Below, one piece after another: positions 1,007 through 40,912 of a stretch of DNA of 64,000 nt (positions within the stretch are counted from its first letter, which is position 1; every line of letters begins with the position of its first letter). The notes below the pieces were generated by a model. The model ran no database searches. It was not told where the DNA came from and saw only the letters and a list, made by a program, of their open reading frames with translations. Position numbers and translations under genes: made by a program. The DNA is from Owenia fusiformis. Taxonomy: Eukaryota. The stretch is taken from the NCBI GenBank assembly GCA_903813345.2, contig CAIIXF020000001.1, positions 25,234,001 to 25,298,000 on the forward strand, given 5' to 3'.

Positions 1007-1802
1007 CTATCACACCAAACTAGTTCTTACCCGTTCTTGCCAGTCCTACGAAAACGTCGTAAAACGGGCTCAATCTGGCTGTGGTCGGGAAATATATGTC
1101 TAAAATAATTAGCTACTTCGTCCATAAACAGTTTTCAATACGTCCATGTCATTCGCAGTTCGTTCAGGTCGCACCACGTCGGTGTGCAACGTCGTATAAC
1201 GCGTCCCTAAGTCTAGAAGGTCATCAATCATGACCTGATTACAGAACGGTATGGTCGCCATCGAATTTTGAATCCTTTCAAAATTCTAAAATCACCTTCC
1301 CGTCTGAGAAAGTTCATGAAGTTCGTAAATAGACCTTAGAAAGTTGCAGCTACATTCATTCCGTTCGCACACAGTTTAAAACCAGTTTTGAAGAACGCAG
1401 TGGCAACTTGTTTGGTGTGATAGCTATATTTTTGCTAACTCGTTCATAAGCAGTCTTTTAACGTTTTAGTCAGTTTAAGCCCGTTTTCAATTAGTTCTAC
1501 CTCGTTCTCAATACGTCCTCAGACAGTTCAACTCGTTGTAAAAACGTCCGGATTGAAGTAAGACGGTTCCGTTCGTAGTACGTCCAGCTCGTCGTTAGTA
1601 CGTTGTCACTCGTTCTAATTGTAGAACGTGACGACCGTGAGAACATTTTGAGCATGTTCCAAGTTCCAGAGGACCTACCCGTTCGAGTACGTTCGATGAA
1701 GTTTGTAAAATAGACCCCAAACGGTTCTAAGTACTCCAGTCCGTTCGTACACAGTTGAAACCCGTTTTCGAGAACGTAGTGAGAACTAGTTTGGTGTGAT
1801 AG
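1007..1802. mobile_element. Putative non-autonomous DNA element with 21-bp inverted ends
   Basis: CTATCACACCAAACTAGTTCT at 1007 and its reverse complement ending at 1802, with a third copy of the end motif near 1405-1423. The interior is CGT-rich. No TSD found. Confidence 0.5.
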
Positions 1803-16088: not shown

Positions 16089-16765
16089 CTGAAAGTGCTT
16101 CTATGAATGTTCATATCTCTGGTAGTAATGTTCTATTGACAAAGTGTTGATTTTTTGATGGACATCCTACGAAACGTCAAAAAATATCTCTGAGAAAGAA
16201 AATCAACAACTTTGTCAATAGTATTTGAAAGTACTGTTGACCGAGACCGGAGGTCGACCGCTAATTGACCAATCAGATGCGAATATTTCCACCGAGGTAC
16301 TAACAACATGATATGTTTTCTCGGCCGATCCTGACTTCATATATTCAAGTATATATAAGTATGTTCTTGTTTTACTCTTTGGCGTACTATTCCCGTCCAT
16401 TTGTCCAAAACAAGTAGAGAAGCATCATGTATGTTTAATAAATGAATATTCACATAATATTGTATTGTATAATATCATTGTACATTACAATTATATTATG
16501 TATTAGAACGAGAAAATCCCATATTTTGACTCATTGTTGAATCATTGATTGTGTCATTTCCATTCTAGAGATCCATCAACACCAAAATTAAAGTCGGTCC
16601 ATCATTGTAAGATTAATAGCTAGGTGAGCGATAAATACATGTGATATTACCCAAGGGTTATCTCGCAACTAACCTCATAATACATTGAATGCTAAATGCG
16701 ATAAACTGCATATTTATATTGACATTTTAGAAACGAAGATTAATTAAGTTTTGGAGAATGTAAAG

Positions 16766-17330
16766 TACGAAGCTTTAAAAGGGACATATTTTTCAAATTA
16801 AAAAAAAATCAATTTTAATTTTTCAAATCTCAAAAAAACTTATAAAAATTCACAAAGTACTTATATAAAATCTAAAAACTTTAATAAAACACAATTTTAG
16901 TTTTGTAATATATCAAAATATTAAATGAAAAATCGATTTTTCTGTTTTAAATCTAAAAAACTTATAAAAATTCACAAAATACTTATCTAAAATCTAAAAA
17001 CTTGAATGAAACAGGATTTGATTTTTGTAATTTCGAAATTCATTTTTCAATTTATTTATTTTTTATATTTATGGAAAAATACCTAGATTACTTTAAAGAA
17101 ATCAAATTAGTTTACAGATTTTAAAAATAGTTTTATAAAATACGATGGGACTTTTGCAATTCAAAATATTATTTTCAAAATAATTTTCCAAAAGTATAGA
17201 ATTATAAAAATAATTTTGCAAAATAAAAAATAATTTTACAAAACTAATATTGAAAATGCATAAGTATTTTAATTTTACAAAAGTCTTCTGTAAAGGAGAT
17301 TTTGTAGAATCTAGATGCGGCGTGTCATGA
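16766..17330 (+). repeat. Left terminal inverted arm of the IS3EU-type element
   Basis: 22-bp perfect TIR, then AT-rich subterminal repeats (AAAAACTTATAAAAATTCACAAARTACTTAT..AAAATCTAAAAACTT near 16835 and 16956), ending in AAGTCTTCTGTAAAGGA..ATGCGGCGTGTCA. Confidence 0.85.
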
Positions 17331-17348
17331 CTTATAATCGAAGAAGAA

Positions 17349-19216
17349 ATGGAGTCAGATCGAGATGAATGTATAGCCACATACTTTGAAGACGGTTTTA
17401 CGTACAAGGAGATCGGCATGTTGTTAAAGTTCCGTCATGGAATTACACTTTCGGAGAGACAGATCAAGAGGGATTTAAAGAAGATGGGGCTCTCAAGAAA
17501 ATTCGATAAAACTGCCATTGGCACAGTTGCTGACGCTATCATTCAAGAGATAGATCATGGCAGTGGGTCAGCAATGGGATACCGGAGTATGCATGGCAAA
17601 ATCACAAAAGTCCATGGGTAAGTCAATTGATTGATCAATCTCCACAATTTTACCATCGGGGAAGTATCAATGTCCTGATTCCGGAATCGAGAATAGTATC
17701 TGGTACCCCGAATCCCGATTGTAAAATTGTGGAGATTGGATTTGAAAAATCAGCCCCACATTTATGAGGTACATGTATGGGAAGGCATAGGCTGGAATGT
17801 GATTCCGCCAATCAGATCACTTTAAGGCCAGCAACTATTCTGCCGTCAACTGAATACTTTTCTTGAAAATACCTACTGTATGCTGCCCATCAAGTCAGTT
17901 CAACATACACCAGTACTCAATACATGTTACCTAGGTCATCTCAGTACCTGTACCTGTCGCTTAGTTTTCATTGAAGGCAAACTCAATTATTAAAAAGATG
18001 TCATCATGACGTTTGAAACCGTTGCCACTTGTGGCATAAGTTAAAAAAGTTGTGTCGTATCTTAATCTCAGTACATGTATTTTCCCCTTTTTGGTCCTCG
18101 TCATCTCATTTTCTGGTATATGTCACCTCAGAGTGCTGTTGTTTCATTTTCTGTTACCCATCAATTCAGTTGTTCCCGTCAACTCAGTTTTGTACCTGTC
18201 ATCCCGCCCAATAAGATACTCATAAAGTTCTTTACCATTATACTGTATTTCACTATTTTATCTCCCCTTTTTCTGGCATAAAATAAAGTATGACAGCTTT
18301 TGTGAATTGCAGGCTGAAAACAGATCATGAAACAATTCGCCGTTTGCTCTCAGTTCTTGACCCAGAAGGTGTACACAAACGATCAACGAGACGCTTACAA
18401 AGGCGACAATATACATCTGAAGGGAGCAACTATATATGGCATATTGATGGCTGGGATAAACTAACTCCATATGGTTTAACTGTCCATGGATGCTTGGATG
18501 GATTCAGTAGAAGAATATTGTGGCTCAAAGCAGGATCTTCAAATAAAAACTCTATGTTAATTTGCAAATACTTTTGCGATTGTGTTAAAAATGTAAATGG
18601 TATTCCAAAGATTGTTCGCGCAGATCGGGGGACTGAGAATGTCAAGGTTGAACTGCTTCAAACTGTTCTACGCTCTGTAAATGATGACTGTTCATGTAAA
18701 GTTGCATTTCTGTATGGAAAATCAACTGCAAACCAGAGAATAGAAAGTTTCTGGAGTAAATTTCCAATATATGGAGCAGCAATGTGGATATCTCACTGCC
18801 GCCAGCTGTTAGATGTTGGCATTATTGACAATTCAAACATACTAGACATTGAGTGTATGAGATATTGTTACATGGATCTACTGCAAAGAGAACTTGACAC
18901 AACGCAAAGAATGTGGAATACACACCATATTCAAAAATCAAAATCTGTCAGTTCAGTTAATGGGAAACCAGATATTCTGTACTTTGCCCCTGAAGAATTT
19001 GGACATAAGGATGTGTTGCAAAAGATTGACCAAGAAATATTTGCTCAGTTAGAATCTGACAATACTTGTGTTGTAGAAACTAACAAGGAACACTTCAAAG
19101 AATTATTCCAAATGCTTATGGAGGAAAGTGGAAAATCAACCCCTAACACATTAGAGGAGGCAAGAGAGTTGCTGGTTTTTCTGTTAGATAAAATTAATCA
19201 TGAACTGCAACAATAA
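17349..19216 (+). CDS. IS3EU-type DDE transposase/integrase, 2 exons, 390 aa
   Basis: Exons 17349-17617 (GG|gtaagt) and 18313-19216 (ttgcag|G) join in frame (phase 2). N-terminal HTH/Clr5-like segment YFEDGFTYKEIGMLLKFRHGITLSERQIKR. Catalytic motifs WHIDGWDKL, VRADRGTEN and STANQRIESFW, with 39 residues between the second D and the E. No stops or frameshifts. Confidence 0.92.
17636..17738. repeat. About 100-bp hairpin (mini-MITE-like) in the transposase intron
   Basis: CAATCTCCACAATTTTACCATCGGG pairs with CCCGATTGTAAAATTGTGGAGATTG (24 of 25). Confidence 0.7.
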
Positions 19217-19687
19217 TCCATTGAATAAGCTTATTCACATCAGTAGGCTTTCAGATTTTTTGAATCAAGCCTGAAGTGTTGATGTTTTACAATTCTGTAT
19301 AATTTGGTCGTAAAGCTGTTAATTGTAATGATTTTTCAAGTGGTTGGAAGTTTTCAGGTAGTTTGTCGGTGCAAGGGTTTTTTCAAAATATCACCAAATG
19401 GCTAACTCCTACTTTGAATTGCAATTCTTTCATTTCTATGTCAGTGCATCCATCTGTTTTTTTGTTGAAAATACAAGAGGTGAGTGAGTGAACAGCCAAT
19501 TTGAAATTGTTAAATGGATGTTATAAAAAATGACTTTGGGTGCATTAGACTAGTATTATGCAATGCAATTATATGAAATACTGTGTAATTAGCTGGAATT
19601 GGACACCTTTCCTTGCATAACATGAGCTCCTCTTTCGGTGGGATAATAATCGTATTGAATATATTGATAATGTTCATTCATTTCCAG

Positions 19688-20219
19688 TTTTTATGTCACC
19701 ACCAAAAGTGGTGACATATTGTTATGGTCTCGTGGTCTGTTTTTTGTTACGGCGGTTGGTGTCTGGTATCTGGTCTGTAACAAATTCTTACAACTTTCAA
19801 TAACTTTACAAATACTGTTTAGACTGACTTCAATTTTTTTCTGAAGCATCTACAAGGTCTTAGAAGTGCATATCTGACTTAAAATATGAGATTTGACCTT
19901 CAATGACCTTCTCAAGATCAACAAAAAAAGGTCAAAAAGGTCTTTTTTCAACTTGCTTCAAATTGACAAAAATTTTTTCCAAATCATCTACAAGTTCTCA
20001 GGAATTCAAATCTGACTTTAGATTTACGATTTGACCTTTAATGACCTTCTCAAGGTCAAAACGGTCTTTTTTACTCTGCTTCAAATTGCACAATTTTTTT
20101 TTCAAAATCATCTACAAGTTTTCTGAAGTTCAAATCAGACTTTAGATTTAAGGTTTGACGTGCTTTAAATTGACCAAATTGTTTTAGGTGGTGACATTTT
20201 GTCATGTTAATGCCTTGTT
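19688..20219 (-). mobile_element. Helentron-derived (HINE/DINE-1-like) family A, copy 1
   Basis: One end AACAAGGCATTAACATGACAAAATGTCACCACCT, the other a hairpin TGTCACCACTTTTGGTGGTGACA followed by an A-run. Subterminal inverted repeats plus internal repeats. Confidence 0.7.
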
Positions 20220-21282
20220 CTTATTCCAGTCTATTGGGATGCACTGGAGTTTTACTTTTCCACTGTGGCCACCCTGTACAATATGCCATTATACTTGTGG
20301 GACAAATAAAATGAAATAAAAACACTTAGCATTTTAGTATCTCATTATATTTCTCATAACTAATATTACACAGAATAAGGTATTTCTGAATTATACACAC
20401 CAAGATGCACTAGGACTCAGTATTCCTTAAAAAGTAACATCATTATTTAATTCTTTGCAACTGCAAATATTGTTCTTCTTCGTTCTTTGGGATAATGAAT
20501 GCATCTTAAAAAATTTAACTTATAAACTAAAAAGTACTTGTTATTTTGATACAAGTGTCAGATACTCTAGTTTACAATTATAAATCAGAGATTTAAAGAA
20601 AATTTGCTTCATTCTTTCTAAATATGGTATAAAAATGACATGGTATAATGATGTTTGGCATGTTCAAAATATTGGCAATATTTTACATGCTTCGAAGAGT
20701 AATTCTTAACATGATGTAACAGCAATCAATTTACAACAGATAAACTTCAGCTTAAATTATGCACAAATCAAGTACTGAACCGATTTCTTAATTGGCAATA
20801 CAACTTACAGAAATCTCCACATTCTATCCACAATTCACACTTACATGTAAATTCACATTTTCAGCATCTAGTAGTATTACATCACACAATCCATAGCAAC
20901 AATAATCAACATCTTAAATTATTCAGGAATGTATATGATATACCTAATAACAGCTCTCATACAGTCATCAAAATTTAGTAATCAAAGTTTGTATAGAATC
21001 GTCTAATTGTTAATACTAAGTACTGTACAGGAACACTTAAAAATATCTTAAAACAAACTTTCTCAAGTACCTTTTTCATAGGCAAGCTAATGCTATAGGT
21101 ATATTGATCATGACTAAATAAATATTTTTAAAAAGCTTTCAGAATCAGACTACAAGTGGTCCCACAATGTGTTGGACATGCATCCATTTTAGCTATAAAA
21201 ATAGCAATCACATTTGAGTATTCATAGTCAATAACATATGTCACAATTTTGATTGCATTTCTCTTCTTAGGAATGATAAATA

Positions 21283-21889
21283 CAGGGCGACTCAAAAAAA
21301 AATGACACCCACCTTTCGTTGCATAACTTGTTGGTCTATGGTCATACAGACTTGTCATTTAGCACATTTAAAGAAGACATAATGTGTAAAGACCTCAAGA
21401 CATTTCAGATGTGTAGCTCAAATGGATCAAATTTTATGAGCGTTACAAGATTTGTTCCATATGACATATATGACGTACATTCCTTTGTAGGCGAACATGA
21501 ATTCTACAGGCAAAGTTGTTGATTACCCTTACACATTGAGATATGGCCCTGATCTTCCTTGTAATTTCTCTCTTTAAGTCAGCTGTTTTGGGGATGTTTT
21601 GTCTCATACATATGGTCCTTTAAATACCCCGAGGTAAAAATTTGGTGGGTTAATATCAGGGGAATGGGGTGCCCACTCAATCTCAGATCTGCGGCTAATG
21701 AGAAAGTCTCCAAAGTGAGAATTTATTGTAATGCTCATAAAATTTAAACCACTTGAGCTACATATCTGAAATTTCTCGAGGTGCTTACGCATTATGTCTA
21801 CTTCAAATGTGCTAAAGGACAAGTCTATATGGTAATGGACAAATAAATTATGCAGCATAAGGTGGGTGTCATTTTTTGCGTCACCCTTG
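21283..21889 (-). mobile_element. Tc1/mariner deletion derivative with about 170-bp TIRs
   Basis: TA|CAGGGCGACTCAAAAAA..TGACACCCACCTT is mirrored at 21859-21889|TA. Internal remnant EWAPHSPDINPPNFYLG resembles the WPxxSPDLNPxDF transposase motif. Confidence 0.8.
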
Positions 21890-22235
21890 TACATGATGAA
21901 CGTCATCCAAATATATCCTATTTTAAGAAAATACACAAATTAACAATGTTTGGTCATCAACTGTTTCAATTTTGCTGGAGTTCTAATGAGATTGTGTGAG
22001 ACTGGACCCAAAGCTATCCTATTTACACTGTAGAACTACTCCATAGTCAACTTTATTAGACCACAAGAATAATATTACGTCATAGTCAGTGCTCTCTCAT
22101 GTTAAATCTTTTTGACACTATGCCTGACACATATTCACTGTACCCTCCACTGTCCACTATTCACAAAACAGCCCCATTTTAATCCACTATGTTATAGAAG
22201 CGTCTGCAGTCTCCTTTGCCTTCAAACTAATCATC

Positions 22236-22912
22236 AAACTAGACAACACTGAGCAACGCCGAAGCGTAGCAAATCCCATCGAACAGCCATTTTACAAAAT
22301 CCTTCTTCTTTTTCAGTTATAGCAAAAATTCATCATTTTAAAAATGGTCGCTCACTAGCCAAGAGTAATATATGTTTCTAAGTAGGCACATATACAATTT
22401 CAGCAAAATCACACACACAAACATGTAAATGGTGGCCATTTTTCAAAATGGCTGCCTACTACCTAAAGTGTCATAAAACAGTGTGCCATGCTTATGAGTA
22501 TTCACATATCAAATATGAACAAAATCGCTCCACTACTTTTGAAGTTACAGCAAAAATTGTAAAGTAGCGTGTAAAAGCCGCCATTTTTCAAGATGGCTGC
22601 CATGTGTTTCTTAAATATCTACATTTCTTGCTTTATCAATGTCCTATATAATTTTTTTACATTTTAAACACATTGCTATTACAGTTTTATATATTGTACC
22701 TAAATTACTGTAAAATCGGCACTAAAATGACCGCCATTTTGAAACGAGTGGCCATTTTGAAAATCGGCTTTCGAGCAGAACTTCTACTCTCAAAACAAAA
22801 TCGGGCAAACGGTATTTGAGTTATCCCCCGGACAGACGGATGTACGGAAGGAAGGACGTACGGACGGAGGCGTTCCCTATATCCCTCCGAACTTCGTTCG
22901 ATGGGATAATTA
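22236..22912 (+). mobile_element. HINE-like family B copy (GGAC microsatellite, terminal hairpin)
   Basis: AAACTAGA..GTAGCAAATCCCA start, internal GCCATTTT repeats, (CGGA)n, and TATATCCC..GAACTTCGTTCG..GGGATAATTA end. Other copies at 28029-28226 and 38177-38919. Confidence 0.7.
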
Positions 22913-23044
22913 GAGAAATGAATTCTCAGATGATAGCTTTAAAATGCTAATGCTAAAGAAATCTTAAGCTTCAGGCAATGTCCACTAAAAAATGTAAATC
23001 CTGACAGTGCGCCAGGAAACATGTACAGTATGTAGACAAGACTT

Positions 23045-26000
23045 TTAATGTTTGCCAAAGTACTTATTACTAAATGCATAATCAAATTTTGCAAATACAC
23101 TATCTTGTTTGATCCCATCATAATATGGAAGGCGGAAAGTATTTGTGCATGTAGAAGATGTTGGGATATCATCATTGTTGTCATAGAATTCAATGGTTAA
23201 TCCCGGGTCGAACCCTGTTATGGGTTCCGTTTCAGAGCCTGTTATGAATTTAAGTATCATTGGGATATCAACTGGCCTGTTGCCATCTGAAAATACAAAA
23301 TATGAAAAGTGAAACACATGTTTATTTTCATTCCAAAAGAGACTTACTTGTAATTCATAAGTTACTATACTAGTAGTAGCAATATTATGTGAAAAGCAAA
23401 TAAAGTAAATAATTGAGTGAGTATAGTTAACCTGTATTGATAAATAGAGGACACTTTGATAATTTTGTTTAAACGAGACCTCTTTAAAGCACTTATATTT
23501 ATTCCATATACTGTAATCAGAAGATGTAAGTCAGACTTAGTGTTTTATACTTCTAATTAGCATTACTTGCGCTTGCATGTACAACAAGGCATTAACATGC
23601 AAAATGTCACCACCTGCCATTCAGCTATTTGTGATAGACACAAACTGCCGAACACTGAACACCAACCACCGAACACCATCCACAAAAAAGTTGGAGACCA
23701 TAACAATATGTCATCACTTTGGGTGCTGACATAAAAATGAAAAATAGAAGATAATTATCAAAAATTGTTATTTACGCTGTACTTCTATTAAGTATTTGTT
23801 GAACATTCGAAATATTTTCTCTTCTTTTATTTTACTGTTGGTTCCCGCTTCGGAAAACACAGGTTTTACGAGACTCTTCAACTTGCGCATTGTCATGACT
23901 GCCTGGGTTCCTGGGCGAAGCAGATACCGCATAACGGGCTTCTTCCTTACAAGCTAAAACAAAATGATTGAAGTACAGTTAGAGGTTTCAATGAATGCAA
24001 GTGGCAAATTAATATAACATTTGGATTTGTAAGAAAAGTTTTTATCTTATGCTACAAGTGCATGCAACCATATTGTAATATATCCTTACGATTCTCAGAA
24101 AACCCATCTGACATTGTAATCAAAGTCTAGCTACAGATGCTGCCGTTTTAACATTTTTGAGAACAAGTTCCTGAATTATTGCACAAACACACAAATACAT
24201 GTAGATGAAAAAATAGATGGATTGATGGGTACTCAAATAAATGGATTGATGGGTACTCTCTCTGAACTTTGTTGGGTTTAAATATATATTTACCTCAAGC
24301 ACACCATACATGTTCATTCCTCTTGAAAACTCTCGCTCTCCTCCATTTAGTTCTAAGCTTTCCTTATTTAAGAGTCTATCCATCTGCCCCTCTGCCAGGA
24401 AGTTGACAGGTGGTCCCTCAAAAAGCAATGCCATAGCTTAAATTAAAAAAAATATTTCATTTATTTTCTTCAAAGAAAACATTTATGACCCCTACATATT
24501 TTTAGCTTTCATTTGAATCTAATGGAAAGTACAAAGGCTACTTCATATCAAAGATCAGAGTGACGAAATGACGAAAACTATTCAACTTATTTTGAAGCGG
24601 AAGTCAATACTCTAAAACGTTTTTAGAAAAGTTTTTCCATTTAAAATGTCTTTGGAAATTTGAAAATGACTGGTGAAAAAAATTATGTCCAGCCAAAATG
24701 TCTGACAACGGATTAGTCCTTAAGGCAAGCACTGGATGGGATAATTAACTTTAGAAGCAAAAATTAAAGAGCCCATAGGCCTAATATTAGTTTAGACAGC
24801 TACTCACCAACAGCAACACCAGCAGCAAAATATCCTATGTGTTCTCTTTCACTAGTACTGATCCAGCACTCATTGTTGATCACATTTAGGAATGGTGAAT
24901 CATCGCCTTTGATGTACCTGCAATAATTTATCTTCGTGAATCTTCAATAAGTTTAAATAATGCATTATGTACCATTCAAATGTTTGCATGAGACACCCCA
25001 CAAAAGGGTAGAAAATTATCACAGTAGCATCCAAGGAGGTGGGATACTGCCATCATACTGTTTCCTGGGAGTAGGAACTTCTGAAATGTGAATTCCTCCT
25101 GGGTATTTCATGTATTTCAACTATATTTGACCAGCTATTATTGTTACCAGGATGGGGAATTTAACTCACTTGATTGCTACATAGATGGGGAATTTGGCAG
25201 CCCATTTTCTATTTTGTTGAAATCAAGTCTCAGTAAAACCTTTAAATATTACATTATCTAATTCTATATTACAGTATGCTCAATCCACTGTTGTTTTTCA
25301 GAAAACCCAAAACAAACAAAATAGTCTGGGAACATAACTTGTACTGGTCTCACCTCCCATATACATCTTAATCCAAGATTTTCTTGGAGGAACATTCATA
25401 CATACAGCTTTTTGTTTGACCAATTTTATATCTGCATTGAAACTGAATGAAAATCAGATATCATAAAAAATATTATACAGTAGCAAAAAGAAACAAGACA
25501 CTAGGAAAACAATACTGCACTCTTGAATAGAATAGACAGTTTTTGGAATGAAAAGTCCAAAATGGCTATATTAACATTTACTCAGAATGACCAAAAACTA
25601 ATCATTACTAGACTTTCAATAAATAATTGAGCTAAAAAATTTAGGTCAAATGGTTTGGCTTGAAACATACAGACAAGACTTTTCAGACGAGATTTTAAGA
25701 ATGAAAATCCAACCCCTTATGAAAAATCTTGCAAAGGTTACAATATTAATTCCTTCATAATATTTTCACTTGCTCCAAGTTACACATACATTATATCTAT
25801 TGAGAGAATATTACCTTATTAAATCTGTAAGAAGTTCTCGACGTGGCCCACCAAGATCTTTGGCATTTTCACCATCGTACATCACCTCTATTCTCTGCCT
25901 AAAGTGTGTAGGAGGCCATGTTCGCACTTGCTCATCAAAATCATCAAAAATGATTTTCCCATCATCTCCAGTCAATCTAGTCACACATATTAGAGCATCT

Positions 26001-29000: not shown

Positions 29001-32000
29001 TGGCAAATCCAGTAAACCCAGCTTCAGGAAACCAGGTTTACTGTTTGTTTCTGTTGACACCTGTGCAAAACTGCATTCGTAATCCATACCACAATGAACA
29101 GGAGGTTAACAGTCAAACCCAGGTTTGCTAGTCCCTTATTAGATTTTCGTATCACAGACCAGGGTTCGAGGCTATTCCAGGCCATAAAATATAAAAGAAT
29201 CGCTTAATCAGAAAATTGTTTGTGTTATCTACCAAGACATTAAACAAATATGAAATAGTACTTATTATGAGTGGTCTAAAATAGGCAGAGTTAGAAGACC
29301 CCTTATACTCATTCTGTCTCTATTTCTACATTAGATAATGGAAGAGGAGTCCCCTTTGCATTTGTTCGACTTCGCCTCTTAAAAGAGAGCTTTGTCTTTG
29401 GAATTTATAACAAGACTCTGCACGCAGGGGAGAAGTCGAAAAATCCCAGAATTCAAGATTGGACCCTGTTTTCATATAAAGATGACATGGTTTTTTGCAA
29501 AGGTAAATTTGGAGAGCAGCAAACCTGGTTTTGAGGGTGCAATCTATGCCAATGAGTGCTTCTGGGATAAATGGACAAAAATTGGATGGATCAAATACTG
29601 TACGATTGAATGGACCGATTACTTTTAAAATCTTATTCAAATCTTTGCTCCTAACTATTTCTGTTAGATAACAATGCTTTCTAATGAACTTACTGTATTT
29701 CACTGGCAGCTTCAACTGTCTTTCTGATGGTATCCCCTTTCCTGAAAATTCAAACAAATGCTTAAATATTTTCTGCCACGTTTTGTTAACATATCTACAG
29801 GTAAACTAAAATTAATTAATACTTTTTACCAATGGTTCTGGGTTTATTATTCTAGACCTGATTACTTTTGGGCATGCTTTGTAAACTGTAAGATGACTGG
29901 CTAAATGTGGAAATTTGCATTGGATTACAGATTTTTCTAGTTGATCTTACTCCATCCCATAATAATAAAGTGGCTCAGCCTGTAACACAATATACACCTG
30001 AACTGAAAACACCAAAATTAACTGAAACTTTTCACAATATTCTCTCAAAATTGCACCATCAAGTTCTAACAAGGCATTAACATGACAAAATGTCACCACC
30101 TTGTTGCTCACAATATTATGTGTTCAAGTCTTTTTGGCGGTGACTAAAAACATTCTTTTCTGTAAATGTCTGAAAAATTGGTATAACAATAAAAGAAAAA
30201 GGCAAATATGTATTCAGGCAGTTAGAGCATTTAGACATATGGAGTTCTAAGTATGGATTATTACTTTTGATACTGCATCCGCATATAGTGCATGTATGTA
30301 CTTACGATGTCGTAATGTCTGCACTCGAACCATTGAGATCCTCTTCATCAGTCATTGCTGAGCTAAAATGAAAATTTAAAGAGGTGTCATTTTTATACCA
30401 ATTCTCATATTCTTTGATGTTAGGGTACTATTCTTTGTTTTATACCATTCAAAGTGTCTTCTTTGCACCTCAATTTAATTTTCAAAAATTGGGAAAATCT
30501 AATTTAGCACTAAAATTGTCAAATTCAAGATCCACCCCTGCAAATCACTCTGTTATGTCTCTTTTGAGACTTAATATTAATGAAGAGTCTCATCTGAATT
30601 CCCCATGGAAAAAATGACTATTTTAGAGGGAATCTGCATTGGCATTAATTTTATCCATGTAGTTTTGATCAGGGAGGTGGTACTCTTTAAATTCTGAAGG
30701 ATATGGAGTGAAGCATTCCACGTTTAAAATGCCTCATTCCTCATTTCTTGGATTGCTCCCATGACATATTTCCTTCATCAGAAGTTTGAAAACTGATTCC
30801 ACTGAGCTTTTGGTTATGAGGATGGCCTTATGTCCTAGGGCATTTTCCCAGTGAAGGCTGTAAGAATCATCTATCCCAGTCATGTAATTGCTACTGTGGT
30901 GCTTTCTCAGAAAATAAAATAATTGACTAAATATTGTCTGAGATTATATATGATCCTACATTGAATCACTGACATTAGATTCCCATGGTAAAATGAAATA
31001 AATAGATAATTATATTGAATTATCAAGTCCAGAACCAATCAAATAGTAGAAGCTTTAATCTTGAGGTATTAACTAAATAATGTTTGGGGAACATCTGTGC
31101 CAAGTTTCAAGAAGATTGGTCTAGTAGTGACATTACTTCTGGATCACCTTGTATGTTGTTATTTATAGAATATTAATTACCTGAATGGGTAGCGAGTCTT
31201 CATCACTTCAATATCACTATTGCTGTCACTGTCACTTTCTTCATCATTCACTGGAATACACTTGCAAAAAAGTCTTATCTGTCCTGGTATTAATTTAGCA
31301 TCCAGATATTTTCGTAATGAAAAAACACCATCCACTGCATCCTCTACACTTCGCCCAGTAATGTCTGTCAGTGTTAGATTATAACAGTTTACATTTCCAA
31401 TCATTATATTTAGACCCTTGGGAAATAATGCAGCTTTCACCTGTTGAAGAATATCATGGTAAGAGTCTTGTGTTCCACAAGTTAGCTGAATAAAGTTTTT
31501 ATCTCCTAATGGAGACTTCACTAATGTAAGCTTTGACTTTTCTGATGCGGAGGCTACATAAAGACCAAACTGTACCACTCTCGAACTTTTCAACGGTCTT
31601 CCCATTTTTTCAGTTTTGGATTGTGTGCTGCTCATCATCATCTTCAGCAACTTTTGTCGCCTATCATCTGGAAAGTAGGATACATACTTTTACCACAAAG
31701 AATAACTTATTTTAGCTTTATTAAAGGTCATTTATTCTTTACTAGTTATGAATACTATGGGGACGGTTAGGGGACAATGACCCATGAATTAAACATTAAT
31801 TTACATGATCAGTTCACTTTCACAAGTAATGGTGATTTAAAGTACTGACCCTCAGAACCCTAAATACTCCAAACTTATTGGTGCAAAATAATTCAAGTAT
31901 AAAACATTAATGTTCATGACCAGTTCACTTTTGGATGCTTGTAACCTAATTCAAGTGCAGCATAATGTTTTACTTATTCTCTTTATTTGATTGATATTAA

Positions 32001-35000
32001 GTAAATAGCAGGAGCACTTGGCCATGTAAATAGTGTTGTTGGGTTAGGTCAATATTTCACTGTTCGTCAAAAAACGTAATTGATTTAGCAAGGTTTTAAC
32101 CCCCCTCCCCCTTCTCACAAAAGTCAGTGCGCGAAATAGACGTCCGACATCGGCCATTGGCCTGACAAAATTATAGATGGCTTGTTTTGATAAAAACACC
32201 CAGACATTTTGGCCTGCTAGACATTTGTGGCATTCGTTAGATTGCCCATGAATAGAACTTACATATCAGTCCGGAAATCCTCCGAATTCCCTGCGTTTTC
32301 GGCTTATTTCATGACTTTTGTTGAAGATTGAAAAACATTTCAAAATATTTTTGTTTGGTACCGAAGCACAAGATATAACGTGACTTTCGATTGGCTGTTG
32401 TTGTTTGTTGAAATTACAGTGATTTTGATTGGCTATGAATGACTCATTTCTTAATTGTCGTTCGCAAATCGAGTGCATTATCAGTATGCCGGATGTAGGA
32501 AAGAAATTGAAAAATCGAGCCGGCATCTAAGTCGAAAAAGTCGGCAGTTTGGAAGTATTTTGGGACTCCGATATCACAAGGTAAACGAATTGGTGATAGT
32601 ACACCATGCAGACTATGTGAAATGCCGATCACATTCGCGGCAGATGCTTTATATTTGATTTAATTGACGTATTTCTGAATGTGATTTTGAAAAGTGAAAC
32701 TGAAAGTGAAAGTGAAACTGTCATCATCAGACGATTGTATCATTTTTAGTGTTCTGTCTGTCCCGTCCCGTCCCGAAAGTACCGTATCCCGAGACCATTT
32801 GTACCGATCCAAACCGTACCGAATTTTTTTGACCGTGACACCTATAATATATACCTTGAATTTTAGTGGAGTCTGTGTACATAATATGTGTTTTTGAATA
32901 CCTTGAAGCTTCTGATTTCTGAGCAATTCTAAACCGACCAAAATCAGTACAATTTAGTTTGATCAATATGTACATGTTCCTCATGTTTTTGCAAGGTGAA
33001 TCTAGGGGGGGGGGATCAACACACTCAGGCTGTTGGTTAAGTCATCAATTACAGTATAGTGAATGATACATGACATGCAATATGCAATTAGTTTTATCTT
33101 TGTTAATATTGTACTAAACTAAATCTCAATTTAGAGTGGTTGTGGAGAAATATGGTAAGTGAAATTTTTGGCCAGAGAAGGAAGAAACAGCCTGCCAAAA
33201 ATTGGCCTAAGAAAAAATGATATGGCTTGTTAAAATCTGGCAGGCCTGCCAAAATGTCTAGGTTAAAAAAATCCTTATTTCATGCACTGAAAGTCAAAAT
33301 GTTGTTTCGTGTACAGTGTTAAAGAATCAAAATGTTGATTTGCATGCAGTGTACAAGTACAACCCCAGCACACAATATCTGCTTCTGCTATAAACACATA
33401 TCAAATTCTCTATCATATCTGTTGTATATTAAATGATCATACCATTGCAGAAGATGAAACTCTGAAATCAATGTCTGTCACCTAATTAAACAAGGCATTA
33501 ACATGGCAAAATGTCACCACCTAAAAAATTGGTTAATTTAAAGCAAGTTGAAAAAAGACCGTTTTGACCTTGGGAAGGTCATTGAAGGTCAAATCTGAAA
33601 TCTTAAGTCAGATTTGAGCTTCTGAGGTCTTGTAGATGACTTTGAAATTTTGAAGCAAGTTAAAAAAAGACCTTTTTGACATTAAGAACTTTATTGAAGG
33701 TCAAATCTCAAATCTAAAGTCAGATTTGAACTTCTGAGAACTTGTATATGATTTAGAAAACAATTTAAGTCAGTCTAAACAGTATTTGTTAAGTTATTGG
33801 AAGTTGTAAGAATCTGTTACAGACTCCAACCACCAACCGCCATCACAAAAAAACGGAGACCATAACAATATGTCAACACTTTTTGGTGGTGTCATAACAG
33901 GGATTTACACCCTCCCCCCTTACATAATTAATTACGTTTTTTGACGCACACTGAAACATTGACCTGACCTCTTAAGCAATTTAAAGTACTCGCAACCTTG
34001 AATACTCCAAACTGGTGCAAAATACTTCTTGTATTTAAAACATACATGATCAGTTCACTTTGGTATGCATAACAATTTTTAAATCATAGGGTTGAAGGAT
34101 TGTATCAGATTAGCCATTGGTATATTCGCTAGAAAATCAACTAGTATTGATGTAATATTGTAAACATATACATGTTGGTAATAGCACAATCAGTTCAAGT
34201 TATTACCTGATTACAGCAGTAATATATTTTAAAGATCTCAAATGAAATGATTTAAAGTAAACACTCAGAAACCTAAATACTCCATACTGGTGCAAAATAG
34301 ATCACATATTTTAACATTTGTTTACATGATCAGTTCACTTTTGGAAGCATGTAATCTAATTTCAGAGCAGTTTAATGTGTTACCAATGATCATTAGTCTT
34401 ATGATGGTAACAGATATCTATCTTATCTGGAGCGTGTGGCAATGTACAGAGTATCTAAGTGATGGTGAATTGAAGTACTCACAACCCTCAAGTTCCGAAC
34501 TGGTGCAAAATATTTCACATCAATTTACATGATCAGTTTCCCTTTCAATATGTAACACTAGATCTGATTATATCTCTTAAACATCTCAAACATACTCAGA
34601 ACCCTAAATACTCCATACTGGTGCAAAATAATTCAAATATTTAACATTAATTTACATGACCAGTTCACTTTTGGAAGCATGTAACCCAATTTCAGAGCAG
34701 CTGTTGCAGCATGTTGATAAATAGATAGCTGGAGCACATTTCTTGAATTTAACATGTAATATAAATAAGTAAGAAAATCTATTGCAAGGGCGGAATTGCT
34801 TGATTGCTATGTTATTTCAAGGATACACGTTTTTAAAAAGGGCTAACTATGCTACAGAAGCCAAATAGCTGGCAGTTGAGCCCAAGTTTTTATAGAATGA
34901 ACATCAAAGTTATGAATTGATGCTATGGTATTTTATGAAATTATAACTCAGATAGAATTTAGTTCTTTTCAAAGGATATGATATAGATTCAGTCAATGTG

Positions 35001-36164
35001 CACATTTAAATATAGGTCATAAGTTAGTTAGGATAAGTTAAAAAGCATTACAAAAGTCCAAACAAAGATAGAAGAATTCAAAACACAGACAAAGGAATTT
35101 ACCTTGTCCCAGTTCTACTACAAGGAGACAACATAGATGGTACAGGTAATATTACATATATGTAACACCACTTTACATGTTGATCAGTAGGTGTAATGTG
35201 ATATATTTTAAACATCTCAAACACACAGATTTAAAGTACATACTCAAAATCCTAAATACTCCATACTGGTGCAAAATATGTAATAGTCATGTAATTCAGT
35301 ATTTGTTAATATGACTAGTCCACTTTCGGAAGCATGTAACCTATTAGCCTACATGCAAGTAGAAATAATCTTGATTTACATCATTAAATATTCAAAATTC
35401 AGTCGATGTGATACCATATTGAAATCTACATGTGGTAACAAAAACAGTTAATCAACTTTCAAAATTTAATTTTCTTTGAAAATGTGACTTCTAGGTCGGG
35501 GAGATTCCCCATAGAGCCCATGTTATAAAATCACAAAAAGTGAATGATGTCTTTTCATTTAGTGGACAGATAGTGGACAGATAATATTTTGCTTTACTTG
35601 ACATTTTTTTCATTTGTATAACTATCAGATACATAAGGGTTATATGAAAATTATTCGACCAGAACAGATGGATATTTAAGTTTAAGGGCACTTTCTGCTA
35701 TACCTGCCATGCTATTTACGCCGAATTAGCCACCTGGTGGTGAAACTGGTTACTAGTTATTACTACCTACTTGCATCTGGGTAATTCCAGTGCAGCATAA
35801 TGTGAAACTAATACTCCATTAGTTTAATTATGGTAAATAATTACACAGAGTACACAGCCATTTAAAAAGTACTTGAGCAAAGATGGTTCAAAGTACCCAA
35901 ACCCCCAATTACTCCAAACTGGTGAATGGTGCAAAATAATACACTCATTTGACATTGATTATAAACAAATACTTCTATACAAATTATAAAAGTGCTACTG
36001 TTAAAAGTGTACAGTGTACCTGTATATCCAAATAAATAATAAATACCTGAAGACACACTACCACTACTAGTGCCTGGACTGGTATTTGGTGTTGGTTGGC
36101 ATTTTACACCACAGTGACAGCAAAAGTTTCCCACAGCTGGTTTCCCACAGCCAGTGCAAAACAT
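23045..36164 (-). CDS. Transposon-borne zinc-ribbon + HECT-domain E3 ubiquitin ligase-like protein, 11 coding exons, 592 aa
   Basis: Minus-strand exons 36047-36164, 31181-31667, 30306-30362, 29694-29741, 28828-28875, 28269-28319, 25815-26111, 24808-24917, 24294-24436, 23776-23953 and 23045-23286. All are GT-AG with matching phases, 1779 nt in total. N-terminus MFCTGCG..NFCCHCG; HECT motifs YDGENAKDLGGPRRE, ILKFITGS, catalytic PTSSTCTNTFRLP, and C-terminal YFGKH. The small middle exons are the least certain. Confidence 0.85.
23583..23737 (+). mobile_element. HINE-like family A, short copy
   Basis: Same two ends as 19688-20219. Confidence 0.7.
26360..27314 (+). mobile_element. HINE-like family A copy interrupted by a MITE
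   Basis: Same ends and body as 33489-33897, split at TAAACAGTA|TTTGTT by the 26700-27200 insertion. Confidence 0.75.
26700..27200. mobile_element. pogo/Tigger-like MITE, TA TSD
   Basis: TA|CCGGAGTTTCTTGCGAATAGGCCCA ... TGGGCCTATTCGCGAGAAACTCCGG|TA with internal ATAAACGCCCA repeats. The empty site TAAACAGTATTTGTT is visible in the paralogous HINE copy at 33776-33790. Confidence 0.88.
28029..28226 (+). mobile_element. HINE-like family B, internally deleted copy
   Basis: Both family B ends within about 200 bp. Confidence 0.65.
30068..30150 (+). mobile_element. HINE-like family A, minimal copy
   Basis: AACAAGGCATTAACATGACAAAATGTCACCACCT ... TTTTTGGCGGTGACTAAAAA. Confidence 0.6.
32125..33289. 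mobile_element. Non-autonomous DNA element with CAGTGC ends and 5-bp TSD AAAGT
   Basis: CAGTGCGCGAAATA ... TATTTCATGCACTG with AAAGT on both flanks. Confidence 0.65.
33489..33897 (+). mobile_element. HINE-like family A copy
   Basis: Same ends and internal TTGACC..GAAGGTCATTGAAGGTCAAATC repeats. Confidence 0.75.
35450..35780 (+). repeat. Dispersed repeat of about 300 bp, copy in the HECT intron
   Basis: TTGAAAATGTGACTTC, GGGAGATTCCC, CATGTTATAAAAT, CTATACCTGCCATGCTAT and GCCACCTGGTGGTGAAACTGGT are shared with 58660-58955. Confidence 0.8.
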
Positions 36165-37665
36165 GTCTGTAAAACAAAAATTTCATTAATCTGAGAATAG
36201 TGGTAGTTTAGAAAATACATCACCAATAAAATGCATGATGGGGCTCCCGTAGGATAATTGCAGCATGCACAATTTACCTATTTCTAATCACATTTCCACA
36301 TATATGCGAATATGCTCACTATTTCTTTGCATTATTTAGGACCATAGACGAGAAAACCCTGTTTCGAAATCTGAGGGGGCCCCCGATTGAAATCGTGAAA
36401 AACTTTGCAAATTTAATCACTTATTCTGGACGTTTTAATTCAAACGGTTTAATATCTTAAAATAAAATAATGTCAGCAGATGTGGTTGTCACAAATCGAG
36501 CTAATTTAAAGTTTAAATGTCATTGGAGATAAAGTTTCTTATTTGTGTCATGGAAAATCCTGAACTTCCAGATTGGGATTTACCAAATTAAATAAACGGC
36601 TTTATTAGATTCTAGCCACATTTACAATTTTACCGGCAATCATCTAAATGATTGATTTAACTTCTGGTATCAGTAAAACCCTAAATCATTCGAAATTCAA
36701 ATGTAATTGGTCGTAATTGGCATCCATGGTATTGCCAAAACAAGATGGCTGCAGGTCCAGATAGAATTCAAAATGGAGGGAGTTTGTATTAATTCACGGT
36801 ATTTGTTTGTGAATTAAAGCTAATGATGGTCTGTGTAAAATTTAATTAATGTGTATACAGTATGCACAAAAGTTGAACAAAGGGTCGATCAGACTCAATC
36901 TTACTTGAGTGTGATAATTGGTTACGTAACAAAGCTTTACTGCATGGTCATGGTGTATTCTACTCTATTTTTATGCATGCTTCCAGGCCTATGCTGCTTA
37001 TACTGCATGTTTACTAGTATTTTAGAAAATGTGAATAAAAATTGGTAATTTAAAATTGTATATGTTGTATTTACCCTTCAGGAACCCCAAAATGCATTTT
37101 ATTAGTGATGTATTTTCTAAACTACCGAGAATGGTACATCCTTCCAAGCATGTATTAGTACCATAAATTAAAGTATAAATGTCATTGGTCATTTCAAAAT
37201 ATATGGTACATTGTCATCATAGCCAGTCAATTATACTTTACATGGCAAATGTAAATTTTGCCTAATCACCGGTAAATTATATCAATTCATTCAACTCACT
37301 TAATCATCAATTCACACATAGCTAGGCAAAGTGTGTCAGATTCCAGCCAATCCGAACAGAGTATTTTTACATGACAGCAGTGCATGAAATAATCAACAAT
37401 AACGCATTTGTTGTGTATAGGTCACCAGTATGATATTCACCCGGTCCTGGGGTAACACCTACTGGTGCACTGATATGCTGCATGGTGAAATGTGTCTATA
37501 GGCAAAGGCAACGCAAGACAAAATATTTTGGAAAATATTCAATCAGACATTCTTTTTTCAGACCCAATGTCATATTTGGATAAGATTTACAATTCCTGTG
37601 ATCGTGCCACATATAACGCCACGCGATTACGTGTTGATTTTAAACTGAATTTGCAATGAAAACGA

Positions 37666-37672
37666 TCGAAGA

Positions 37673-37711
<39 letters not shown>

Positions 37712-37720
37712 CGAAGATCT
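37666..37720 (-). mobile_element. Poly(A)-only retro-insertion with 10-bp TSD
   Basis: TCGAAGATCT at 37666-37675 and 37711-37720 brackets a pure T-run (37675-37711). Confidence 0.7.
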
Positions 37721-37918
37721 GGTACTTTCATTTCTCACATGTTTGATAGCGGGTCATTAACTCTTAGCCTATTATCCATGTCTTATTTTTCACAAAAAAA
37801 ACTCAGAGGAACCCCGCAGAATTCCAGCAGAATTGGCTTTTTTCTTTGCAGAATTCACTAATTTCACTTGCAGAATTCAGTATTTTAACTCACGGAAAAC
37901 TGGGGGGAGTGCCCTAGG

Positions 37919-39162
37919 CCCGGGAGGTTCACTGTATACAAAATTCAGCGGGTTCCTAGGCTGAACCCTCAAATATGATCAATATGTTCCCATACCAATC
38001 TGTTAAATTTCAATGTGTTCCCATACTGACAAAAATAATGCCCCAAAGCACACCAAATGTCCAAATATAAGACCATTGCCATACCACATGTCCAGATGTA
38101 AGACTAAGGCCATTTAAAATGTCTAAAGCCCCGAGAAGAAGGCAGATCTTTGAGGAAAACGATCCAAAACAACCTCAAACTAGAAAACTGCAACTCCGCG
38201 AAGTAGCAAATCCCAACGAACAATATATCAATTACCAAATTAATTCCAATCAGTCATAGAATTGAAAAATTTAGATTTTATGATTGCGAATTCCTGAAAG
38301 GCAGCCATTTTGAATTTTCTGAGGTACAAATCTGAAAAATAATACCATAATTGTGATCTACTCTAAAATTCCTTCAATTTGAGTATAATATAGGCATACT
38401 TTGAAGGGATCGCAAAATTATTGCGAAATCCAACATTAGGCGGCCATTTTGAATTTCACGAGGTCTGAATCTGAAAAAAGATACAATCAACTCTAAATTG
38501 CCTTTCATTTGAGTATAATAAAGCTATACTTCAGAAATACCTCAAAATTAACGAATATTTCTGTTTTCCTGACCCCCCATACACGGCCCCAGGGGGTCAG
38601 CATGAAAAACAAGGAATATATGTGAAATAAATAGATGTTGTGAATATACTACCAAAATTTCAAACAAAAATATTTATTACTTTGGTTTCGAATGAAAAAT
38701 TCATGATTTTTACGAAAAAGTCTAGTCATTTTTAAAGCGGCGGCCATCATGGAAAATTTTTTTTTGGGTAAAACTATTCACCAATATACATCGTTCCACC
38801 AAATATGAAGAAAATCCGTCAACTGGTATTTGAGTTATCTTCCGGACGGACGGACGGACGGACTGACAGACGGAGGGCTTCACTATATCCCTACAGAACT
38901 TCGTTCGTTGGGATAATTAAGGATATGTGTAACTACTAGACCAATGCCATACACAAGTGAGAGGCAATGTATTTTCCATGACCATTCTCATACCAGGAGT
39001 GGAAAAATCTGACCATTGCCATACCTCAAATCATAATTTAGGGGGCATTCTCATTCCAGATCCTAAAAATTGGGTCCATTGCCATACCAAATGTCAAAAA
39101 AGGGACCCCACATGAGCCGAGGATCCCCCCCGTCAAGGTTTATATACAGTGAACACCCCAGG
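37919..39162. mobile_element. MITE with CCCGGG-type ends and 5-bp TSD CTAGG
   Basis: CCCGGGAGGTTCACTGTATA ... TATACAGTGAACACCCCAGG with CTAGG on both flanks. Internal CCATTGCCATACC repeats; hosts a HINE-like family B copy. Confidence 0.65.
38177..38919 (+). mobile_element. HINE-like family B copy nested in a MITE
   Basis: Family B ends and (GGAC)n at about 38843-38873. Confidence 0.7.
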
Positions 39163-39497
39163 CTAGGAGCCCTGGCCCTGTGTCTAGTATTCAGTCAGTG
39201 AAACCCCTGCTCTAGCTAACCATCCCATTAAAAAAAATCAGGGTGATCAACTTTGGCCAAAAATCACTTGAACTGAGTTCTAAATTGTTGAAAAACTGCA
39301 TGATTTTGAATGAATTTTTGTCCAGGCCGGTCTGAGGGGGGGTGATGCACACGTGGTTCACGTCATGTCTGGCTTTTGAATGGTTTATCTGTAAAGTGCA
39401 ACATCTACGTTATTTTGAACAAACAGATTGCCTTACAAAGGTAAAATATATAAAAGATAGTCCACTAGTATAGACAACTAGGCCTACATATACTCAC

Positions 39498-39545
39498 TTT
39501 TCTGCTTGACAATTCCCGCTTCCTTCACTTCCGTTAATTTCAACC
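39498..39545 (-). promoter_or_regulatory. Candidate non-coding first exon / transcription start region of the HECT gene
   Basis: The HECT ATG exon is preceded by an acceptor (ttttacag|acATG, AG at 36168-36167), so an upstream UTR exon is likely. A strong donor AAAA|GTGAGTA lies at 39497, just inside the right arm. Confidence 0.5.
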
Positions 39546-40142
39546 GTGACACGCCACATAAAGTTTTCCTTTACAGAAGACTTTTAAAAAATTTCAGACT
39601 TATCTAAAAATCTGAACTGACTTATGAATTTCCAAAATCAGTTTTGCAAAAAAAAATTGCAAAAATATTTCTAAAAAATTATTATAATTTCTATAAATCA
39701 TTTTACATTTACATATTTGATTTTTGAAATCCTAAAATAGAGTCTAAAGTTTTAAGGATTTTCTAAAAGTGTTTTTAAATCTTTAAATTGATTTTTAAAT
39801 CAATTTATTTAATTTTTTTATATATATTTTGAAATTAAAAAATTAAATTTTCAAATTACAAAAGTTACTTCAATTTTTATTAAAGTTTTTGAATTTTAAA
39901 TAAGTGTTTTGCGAGTTTTCAAAAGTTATTTATGATTTTAAAAAACTATTTACATTTTTATTTAAGTTTTTAAATTTTCAATAAGTATTATGTGAGTTTT
40001 TATAAGTTAATTATGATTTTAAAAAACTATTTTTATTTTTATTAAAGTTTTTAAATTTTCAATAAGTATTTTGTGAGTTTTTAAAAGTTAATTATGATTT
40101 TCAAAAATAGAAATGAAAAAATGTCCCTTTTAAAGCTTCGTA
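39545..40142 (-). repeat. Right terminal inverted arm of the IS3EU-type element
   Basis: Reverse complement gives the same 22-bp TIR, about three related AT-rich subterminal units (39860-40110) and AAGTCTTCTGTAAAGGA..ATGTGGCGTGTCA at the inner end. Confidence 0.85.
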
Positions 40143-40912
40143 GTAAAGTGGTTATTCGGTCCTCCGAAAAACACATTGAGAATGGAGGGGTCACTGCAAG
40201 TCAAATCAATAAATTATTAATCACTCCAGTTTCATAAAAACAGCATATTAAAAATATTCTAAATCTTTAGGCCTCTGATTGAAAAAAACACAAGAGATGC
40301 AATTTGACTTTTACGAAATACTTTTAGACTCTAGCTGTGTTGTTCTCTTGTAGTCTTAACTGCGTAAAACAATTAAAGATGTACTAAACCCTTTATCCTG
40401 ATTATATCCAGCTTGCCTTACAGTATGAAGGCCACACTTTATGATGGGGAACCACCACCACTTCCATAGTGCATTTTACCATGTTATCGGGGACTTAAAG
40501 TCAGCAGGTGCGGCAACACTGATTTCATTTTCAGAGCAAAATATTTACGTCACATTATTCTGGATCTGCCATTCTATTACATCTTTAAATACCGTTTTCT
40601 ATACGTAAATACTTTTTGAGAATATAAAGACATTTTTAATTACATGTAAGATACCCATATGCCAAGTTTAGATAATGGTACTAATGGTGCCATCTCTTGT
40701 TTATGTGTTCTGTTTTTATCTTGTCAACGTCTATAGAAAGAGATACTGCAAATAAGAGGCGATTAATAACAACTTTTAGACAAATGTGAAGTGAGTGCGG
40801 ATCAATATATTTAAATTGTATATGATAACGAGGGGTGATCAATAAGATTGCACATTATATTTACACCACAACCATGCTATACTTCAATGACACGATCAAT
40901 GTGCTTCCATGA

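Follow-up and report, generated by a model that had tools for sequence, protein, structure and literature searches.

A 23.4-kb IS3EU/GingerRoot-type transposon of Owenia fusiformis with a probable UBL-HECT ubiquitin ligase gene convergent to its transposase gene

In a 64-kb stretch of the genome of Owenia fusiformis (positions 25,234,001 to 25,298,000 of contig CAIIXF020000001.1, hereafter the window, in which all positions below are counted), a transposon of 23,377 bp occupies positions 16766-40142, and between its terminal inverted repeats (TIRs) a transposase gene on the plus strand and a HECT ubiquitin ligase gene on the minus strand converge. The explanation in which we place considerable confidence is that this unit is a young, structurally complete and autonomous transposon of the IS3EU/GingerRoot superfamily, and that it represents an animal clade whose members carry convergent genes for a transposase and for a ligase that combines a ubiquitin-like (UBL) domain with a HECT domain.

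The boundaries of the element are defined by its ends and by the duplicated target site. The dinucleotide TA stands at both outer ends, the first letters of the element being TACGAAG and the last CTTCGTA. The 22-mer TACGAAGCTTTAAAAGGGACAT, which forms the TIR (TA start, TACGAAGC...AAGGGACAT), has exactly two occurrences in the window, one on the plus strand (16766-16787) and one on the minus strand (40121-40142), and the two copies agree in 22 of 22 letters (0 mismatches, although the search tolerated 3); by chance 0.01 matches would be expected, and two copies were reached in 0 of 100 shuffles. No further TIR pair was detected inside the window. Both termini are abutted by the hexamer GTAAAG (16760-16765 and 40143-40148), the target-site duplication (TSD), so that the insertion site with its outer flanks reads GAGAAT-GTAAAG-TGGTTATT; we estimate the chance of a 6-base flank match at the base composition of the window at ~4e-4. 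Since a single perfect TSD surrounds the whole 23.4 kb, the unit was inserted in one piece. Subterminal arrays with units of ~81-122 nt lie at both ends in mutually inverted orientation, two copies at 16830-17031 and four at 39799-40107. The left repeats cover 16790-17031 on the plus strand (2 units of ~80 nt, direct-repeat family D6) and the right repeats 39799-40107 on the minus strand (4 units of ~81 nt, family D1), joined by the inverted pairs I6 and I8, and the arms 16790-16889 and 39956-40055 are 73% complementary. These repeats are likely candidates for transposase binding sites.

The transposase gene consists of two exons at 17349-17617 (89 codons and 2 nt) and 18313-19216 (including the stop codon), separated by a 695-nt intron with GT..AG borders (17618-18312), and the resulting coding sequence specifies 390 amino acids with zero internal stops. 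Expression was followed in the raw reads of two RNA runs, X22 and X24, over the window, and the intron junction (17616->18312, cut +1) is covered by 109 reads of X22, 234 reads of X24 and one contig of a further run, X9. The open reading frame (ORF) 18287-19213 scores 114 bits (E 7.4e-33) with the integrase-core family PF24764, for which the cut-off is 26, its match to the classical rve family being below the rve cut-off, and the residues D54, D113 and E153 in the numbering of this ORF are invariant across 24 aligned sequences. Exon 1 encodes a helix-turn-helix (HTH)-like N-terminal domain that matches Clr5 (E 9.4e-6, 26.1 bits, cut-off 22.3) and that can be aligned to the N-termini of transposase homologues, with HTH_21 and HTH_33 both below cut-off; as it contains one Cys only, it is without an HHCC zinc finger. 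A word-based protein search yielded 673 transposase homologues at E <= 0.001 among 1594 candidates. Identity is at most 53% among the best 120 of the 673, and the hosts named among the matches listed include a limpet (Patella caerulea), a brachiopod (Lingula anatina), a coral (Montipora capricornis) and a sea anemone (Exaiptasia diaphana).

According to the published descriptions, complete IS3EU families have TA..TA termini without exception and in most cases a 6-bp TSD, they lack the HHCC finger and have an HTH-like region before the core, and IS3EU and GingerRoot are treated as one lineage (Kojima and Bao 2023, PMC10045372); for GingerRoot, a 6-bp TSD and TA...TA termini are given for 72 of 77 elements (2019, PMC6839031). 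The Owenia element displays TA..TA ends, a 6-bp TSD, a DDE core with its triad, no HHCC finger and an HTH-like N-terminus. It also shares with the described elements long TIRs or subterminal regions, an integrase-related DDE domain and a spread in aquatic animals, the hosts of its transposase homologues matching the kinds of host named for GingerRoot. Membership in the IS3EU/GingerRoot superfamily forms part of the explanation as a whole, and is probable with it.

The second gene was recognized from a minus-strand ORF at 23.0-23.5 kb that matches the Pfam HECT family. A public protein of 307 residues with a HECT domain (P0125, an 'unnamed protein product' of Owenia fusiformis) is rebuilt letter for letter by the minus-strand segments 26065-25815, 24917-24808, 24436-24294, 23953-23776 and 23286-23045. 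The whole protein matches PF00632 with an E value of 6.8e-11, and the fifth exon (23045-23286, residues 229-307), which encodes the C-lobe with the catalytic Cys and the stop codon, matches it with 1.9e-10. Exons 2 to 4 (24808-24917, 24294-24436 and 23776-23953) reproduce the protein, and exon 1 of the public model, with its ATG at 26065 and 100% identity to P0125, can be extended to an acceptor at 26111 (25815-26111). The C-terminal part reads ...PTSSTCTNTF..., with the catalytic Cys (in STC) 33 residues before the end and aligned with the T-C of AREL1, and the protein ends in ...YFGKH, with a Phe at position -4. Phe at position -4 is the rule in HECT ligases. The closest solved HECT relative of P0125 is AREL1, a distant one at E 4.4e-4, and the Atlas model of P0125 gives template-modelling (TM) scores of 0.73-0.82 with HECT clusters over residues 1-307. 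The features of a HECT ligase are present in that the fold comprises an N-lobe and a C-lobe, the catalytic Cys lies at 33 residues from the C-terminus, within the usual range of about 30-35, and the Phe is found at -4.

We read the ligase gene of the element as encoding a UBL-HECT ligase of which the public model is a truncated version, the 31181->26111 junction being inferred. The model upstream of 26065 was built from splice signals, phase and one X9 contig, and it adds a minus-strand exon at 31181-31667 with splice sites of the form AG|..|GT. The X9 contig (record 15, depth 133.7) spans exactly 31181-31667 and extends 30 and 234 letters past its ends. For this exon 32 homologues were found at E <= 0.001, of which 14 reach E <= 1e-10, and none exceeds 43% identity; among the 32, the bacterial P0154 was set aside as a weak partial match. 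The AlphaFold model of the exon has a mean predicted local distance difference test score (pLDDT) of 86.8, and the top folds retrieved for it by Foldseek are UBL, UBX and Ras-binding domains, nearly all of them beta-grasp, with nothing at E <= 0.001 and a best value of 1.2e-3. The acceptor TTTATTTCAG|G at 26111 is strong and its phase fits the exon, and when the two are joined an open frame of 484 amino acids results that includes P0125. The intron between them would measure 5 kb (26112-31180) and would consist mostly of high-copy nested repeats, the depth of the DNA run X1 being 4e4 to 5e5 across 26405-30406. A UBL-like domain linked to HECT is also encountered in the homologue P0141 and in two ORFs from metagenome loci (L044 and L023). 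The relatives have an N-terminal motif, '...LGL.A.GD...LR.FC', for which no counterpart was found in the element by tblastn, regular expressions or a small hidden Markov model (HMM), and the 5' exon or exons of the ligase were not located within 31668-39798. A Cys-rich ORF on the ligase strand (36182-35865, CxxC...CCxC) has no Pfam match and lies in a bin with an RNA depth of 20/13; standing unlinked to the other exons, it could be the missing first exon. Like it, the ORF 30943-30737 is left outside the gene model.

Both genes are transcribed from the expected strands, the transposase about ten times more strongly. The two bins that hold the transposase exons have depths of 60 and 124 in X22 and of 110 and 231 in X24, and the mates are oriented as expected for plus-strand RNA. 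HECT-exon bins that are free of high-copy repeats have depths of 5-21 with the opposite mate orientation, exon 4 for instance reaching 21.5/20.1 with the first mate on plus. Run X9, which is labelled 'DNA?', behaves like an RNA library, as it contains a contig from which the transposase intron has been removed (16788-18341) and covers exons far more deeply than introns. This spliced contig starts at 16788, immediately inside the left TIR, although the piling up of reads points to a main start of transcription around 17343-17354. At 20402-21735 minus-strand RNA (first mate on plus) was observed at depths of 122/53 and 68/49 in X22/X24, above those of the HECT exons; the region is not high-copy in X1 (depth about 890-2880), and its RNA may be a long 3' untranslated region of the ligase or a separate transcript heading to the 3' end of the transposase gene. 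A preliminary description of this DNA, made from the letters alone, had proposed perfect 22-bp termini, a perfect 6-bp TSD, two convergent open spliced genes, an IS3EU-type element whose transposase is intact, and a unit that moved as a whole with its introns, and these proposals were borne out by the identical ends and flanking hexamers, the 390-residue transposase with its HTH and integrase-core domains, the agreement of the HECT exons with P0125 and the single TSD around the entire unit.

The association of the two genes extends to related loci. Metagenome contigs were scanned with the transposase alignment, which matched 593 stretches, 481 of them encoding a relative, and the best 80 of these 481 were kept; the 80 loci are thus the best of a larger set and do not amount to independent species samples. 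HECT or the N-terminal domain was detected at 6 loci by an initial tblastn, and an iterated local HMM revealed a HECT-like ORF in 26 of the 80 loci. In all 26 cases it lies downstream of the transposase on the opposite strand, in convergent orientation and 0.5-3.5 kb past the end of the transposase, and the transposases of the HECT-bearing loci are 35-49% identical to that of the Owenia element. When loci are sorted by the length of downstream flank, a HECT-like ORF is present in 21 of 31 with at least 2 kb, in 15 of 18 with at least 3 kb and in 10 of 12 with at least 4 kb. Nine of the 10 ORFs tested were above the Pfam HECT cut-off, L070 being below it, and the N-terminal domain precedes HECT on the same strand at 8 loci. 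L008 (5939-7261, minus strand) has in addition a borderline UBX match (21.4 bits, cut-off 21) that is placed between its UBL-like domain and HECT, and in L044 (2375-4516, minus strand) such a stretch was noted by eye only.

One of the loci, L043, is a complete 9.4-kb element with the TSD GATTGT on both sides, and it encloses a transposase, the N-terminal domain and HECT; its TIRs of ~126 bp start with TACGGAGCCCCA.AAGGGACAT, which is close to the Owenia terminus. The terminus motif of the Owenia element (TACGGAGC..AAGGG) was found in L014, L021, L023, L043 and L058, in L014, L023 and L058 at 0.3-0.9 kb upstream of the transposase match, and over all loci there are 7 matches, where shuffling gives a mean of 1.44. 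Among 27 element-borne HECT sequences, 25 have the catalytic Cys, the exceptions (L009 and L031) being near-identical copies with Phe. As the pair recurs in 26 of 80 divergent loci and inside the ends of L043, the ligase is an old companion gene of the clade and not a recent capture in Owenia. The preliminary description had spoken of a HECT 'cargo', which holds for a multi-exon HECT gene inside the ends but does not hold in the sense of mere cargo. Distances between transposases and between HECT C-lobes correlate (Mantel r 0.61, a value reached in 0 of 5000 permutations; without the near-duplicates L031, L040 and L062, r 0.45 with 4 of 5000 and Spearman 0.53 with 1 of 5000), the C-lobe alignment behind this correlation being short.

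The brevity of that alignment is one of several points that weigh against an autonomous transposon with a regular ligase partner. The 31181->26111 junction and the 5' end of the ligase are without read support, and no HECT junction is among the 15 RNA joints listed (there are 2239 more). Of the 31 loci whose downstream sequence extends for at least 2 kb, 10 yielded no HECT ORF; these include L072, where a long interspersed nuclear element lies downstream, and L065, where a protein kinase gene does. L021 contains at 296-3180 a complete 2.9-kb element with TIRs and the TSD GATTAA that carries a transposase only and no HECT, which implies that not every mobile copy requires the ligase in cis. In addition, two pairs of close transposases, L014/L022 and L046/L047 (20-26% apart), bear distinct types of HECT C-lobe, which suggests that lineages of the element have swapped the ligase module.

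The evidence on copy number and recent activity in Owenia points both ways. Eight listed contigs of X1 within the element match it with 0-2 differences at depths of 804-1347, in exons, introns and spacers alike, and at 16469, the sole flank position reported, the depth is 65. Four contigs lie over unique sites such as 24674 and 24691, where minor variants make up 24-32% of the depth, and at 20510, 23424, 30279, 30451 and 34423 X1 differs from the window at full depth; RNA reads at four of these five sites (not 30279) nearly all agree with X1. This suggests ~12-20 near-identical copies of the element, the window copy having a few private changes. It is a hint drawn from one flank position in one run, and contig depths added together do not amount to a copy number. 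P0125, on the other hand, is the only member of its 90% cluster in the protein collection, where it was seen on one 37.5-Mb contig, and an exon query retrieved P0125 only, so that several intact annotated copies are not evident. The published Owenia annotation was made on a soft-masked assembly with a repeat library from which gene-like sequences had been removed, which may explain why the ligase is annotated and the transposase is not. No paralogous empty site was found in the window, where the 300-bp flanks and the joined flanks match only themselves.

These observations leave room for an unlikely alternative, namely that the locus is a fixed, immobile single copy, with genes co-opted by the host or as a recent dead end, and that the excess of X1 depth is technical. 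It would accommodate the uniqueness of P0125, the single TIR pair of the window without any empty site, the dependence of the depth argument on one flank position, and the strong and steady expression of the transposase in two RNA runs, which would suit a host gene; however, domesticated transposases normally lose their TIRs and TSD, both of which are perfect here, and each end still has its array of subterminal repeats intact. The technical explanation of depth is likewise opposed by a uniform ~800-1350 across exons, introns and spacers against 65 in the flank, and by the presence of more than two sequence variants at some unique sites. Very improbable, and already largely refuted by the related loci and L043, is the proposal that a host HECT gene was recently captured or merely lies between two ends, as a roleless passenger of a Pack-type capture or of a composite of two elements: it could draw on the annotation of the HECT gene as an ordinary single gene in the public proteome, on the complete HECT-less element of L021 and on the capture of host gene fragments reported for 22 of 77 GingerRoot elements of a clubmoss (PMC6839031), but it is contradicted by the recurrence of HECT, placed and oriented alike, in 26 related loci with transposases that differ by at least 51% from that of Owenia and, after de-duplication, by at least 20% from each other, by HECT inside the TIRs and TSD of L043, by the catalytic Cys in 25 of 27 sequences together with the correlated distances, and, as far as a composite of two insertions is concerned, by the one perfect TSD around the whole unit.

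For the autonomous transposon with a partner ligase, the following mechanism can be envisaged. The transposase would bind the TIRs and the subterminal repeats, excise the element and reinsert it with a 6-bp stagger. The ligase is predicted to be an active, thioester-forming E3 on the basis of its catalytic Cys and the Phe at -4, and it may have been kept because it is useful to the element. Its most likely substrate would be a host protein that limits transposition or the cellular response to the breaks that transposition causes, the transposase itself being a less likely target. The functions suggested in the preliminary description, namely the degradation of silencing factors, the modification of chromatin or the control of transposase turnover, stand as conjectures. 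It is possible, as a tentative proposal, that the UBL-HECT protein acts as a counter-defence or accessory factor that marks a host restriction protein, a DNA-damage-response protein or the target chromatin, and that it travelled with this clade across animal phyla, seeding many of the short HECT/G2E3-like genes in molluscs, cnidarians and fish.

Additional enzyme genes have been described in fungal members of the superfamily. Fungal IS3EU elements have TAYGG..CCRTA termini and 6-bp TSDs, the TET/JBP-positive ones carry TET/JBP and alpha-kinase as extra enzyme genes with the alpha-kinase oriented opposite to the transposase, the extra enzyme is read as aiding escape of the element from host silencing, and TET genes in fungi have been swapped among many superfamilies (Kojima 2025, PMC12730594). 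The Owenia element resembles these in its 6-bp TSD and in possessing an extra enzyme gene, its termini being TACGA, and TACGG in its relatives, against the fungal TAYGG; it differs from them in having HECT instead of TET/JBP and alpha-kinase, in its animal instead of fungal hosts, and in a ligase that is tied to one transposase clade with partial swapping. The earlier statement that IS3EU is reported to encode a second protein thus agrees with what the same source documents for fungi (alpha-kinase, TET/JBP), but that protein is not documented there as HECT. At L065 a protein kinase gene (2956-3747, minus strand; Pkinase E 2.6e-41) is convergent with the transposase in the place of HECT; it recalls the alpha-kinase of fungal IS3EU as described in that account, and it may be a flanking host gene. 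Compared with the described IS3EU and GingerRoot elements, the distinguishing feature is a UBL-HECT ligase as a regular second gene, the comparison being one with published descriptions.

Among host-type proteins, the ligase is most readily compared with short HECT-only and G2E3-like proteins of ~340-360 amino acids from molluscs, cnidarians and chordates (names assigned automatically to protein Atlas clusters), with which its fold shares TM scores of 0.78-0.82 over 275-284 residues and which, like it, are distant from the HECT families that have been studied well. In the G2E3-like Atlas cluster PHD or zinc fingers are present (PF26054, PF13771), whereas none was found in the ligase of the element, since neither the upstream exon nor the ORF 36182-35865 matches any Pfam family, and hence neither PHD nor zf-HC5HC2H. 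Another parallel is provided by the Ulp1-type proteases of the ubiquitin/SUMO system, which are located beside the transposase in some Mutator-like and Ginger2/TDD elements; these proteases remove a modifier, whereas a HECT ligase attaches it.

No publication joining IS3EU with HECT was found in a literature search, whose reach did not include Repbase/Dfam entries and paper supplements, nor was there a paper combining 'HECT domain', Repbase and transposase, and the words 'HECT' and 'ubiquitin' are absent from the GingerRoot, IS481EU and Hydractinia papers. We rate a HECT ligase as a conserved partner of a known superfamily as apparently not previously described in the literature searched. To our knowledge, few eukaryotic DNA transposons keep an enzyme that acts on host proteins, and a ligase retained beside one transposase lineage through deep divergence would be the transposon counterpart of the viral ligases that remove host defences. 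In animals, the little-studied IS3EU superfamily would acquire a feature that defines its biology, beside the TET/JBP and kinase genes of fungi. For genome annotation, it means that such ligase genes are at present catalogued among the ordinary genes of the host, an example being the 'unnamed protein product' of Owenia. The element may also be of use as a tool, as it appears intact, is expressed and carries at least 21 kb between its ends.

The large size of the element is due to other high-copy repeats that fill its introns and spacers, not to additional genes. X1 depth is 1e4 to 1e6 over about half of the 23 kb, and repeat families are common to the spacer and the introns. The spacer between the two stop codons (19068-23069) contains high-copy nested repeats at about 19.1-20.4 kb and 21.7-23.1 kb, with X1 depths of 5e4 to 1.1e6 in the repeat bins, as well as the inverted pair I2. 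In the remaining interior (31668-39798), the depth table places nested repeats at 32.4-34.4 and 35.1-35.7 kb. A plus-strand ORF at 32455-32660, in a moderately repeated bin, includes 'SAVWKYFG...C..C', which we take to be typical of the BED zinc fingers of hAT transposases, and it is probably a nested hAT fragment. Within the spacer, a 152-nt inverted duplication (21297-21448 and 21726-21877) is 84% complementary, and the ORFs on its two strands are alike. The minus-strand ORF 21939-21607, which has no Pfam match, ends in a motif that presumably corresponds to the C-termini of mariner-type transposases. Just 3' of the HECT stop codon, the segment 22403-23069, a nested repeat of very high copy number, reaches an X1 depth of 1.1 million and an RNA depth of >1000, and many RNA joints in it go back on themselves, for instance 22555->22427.

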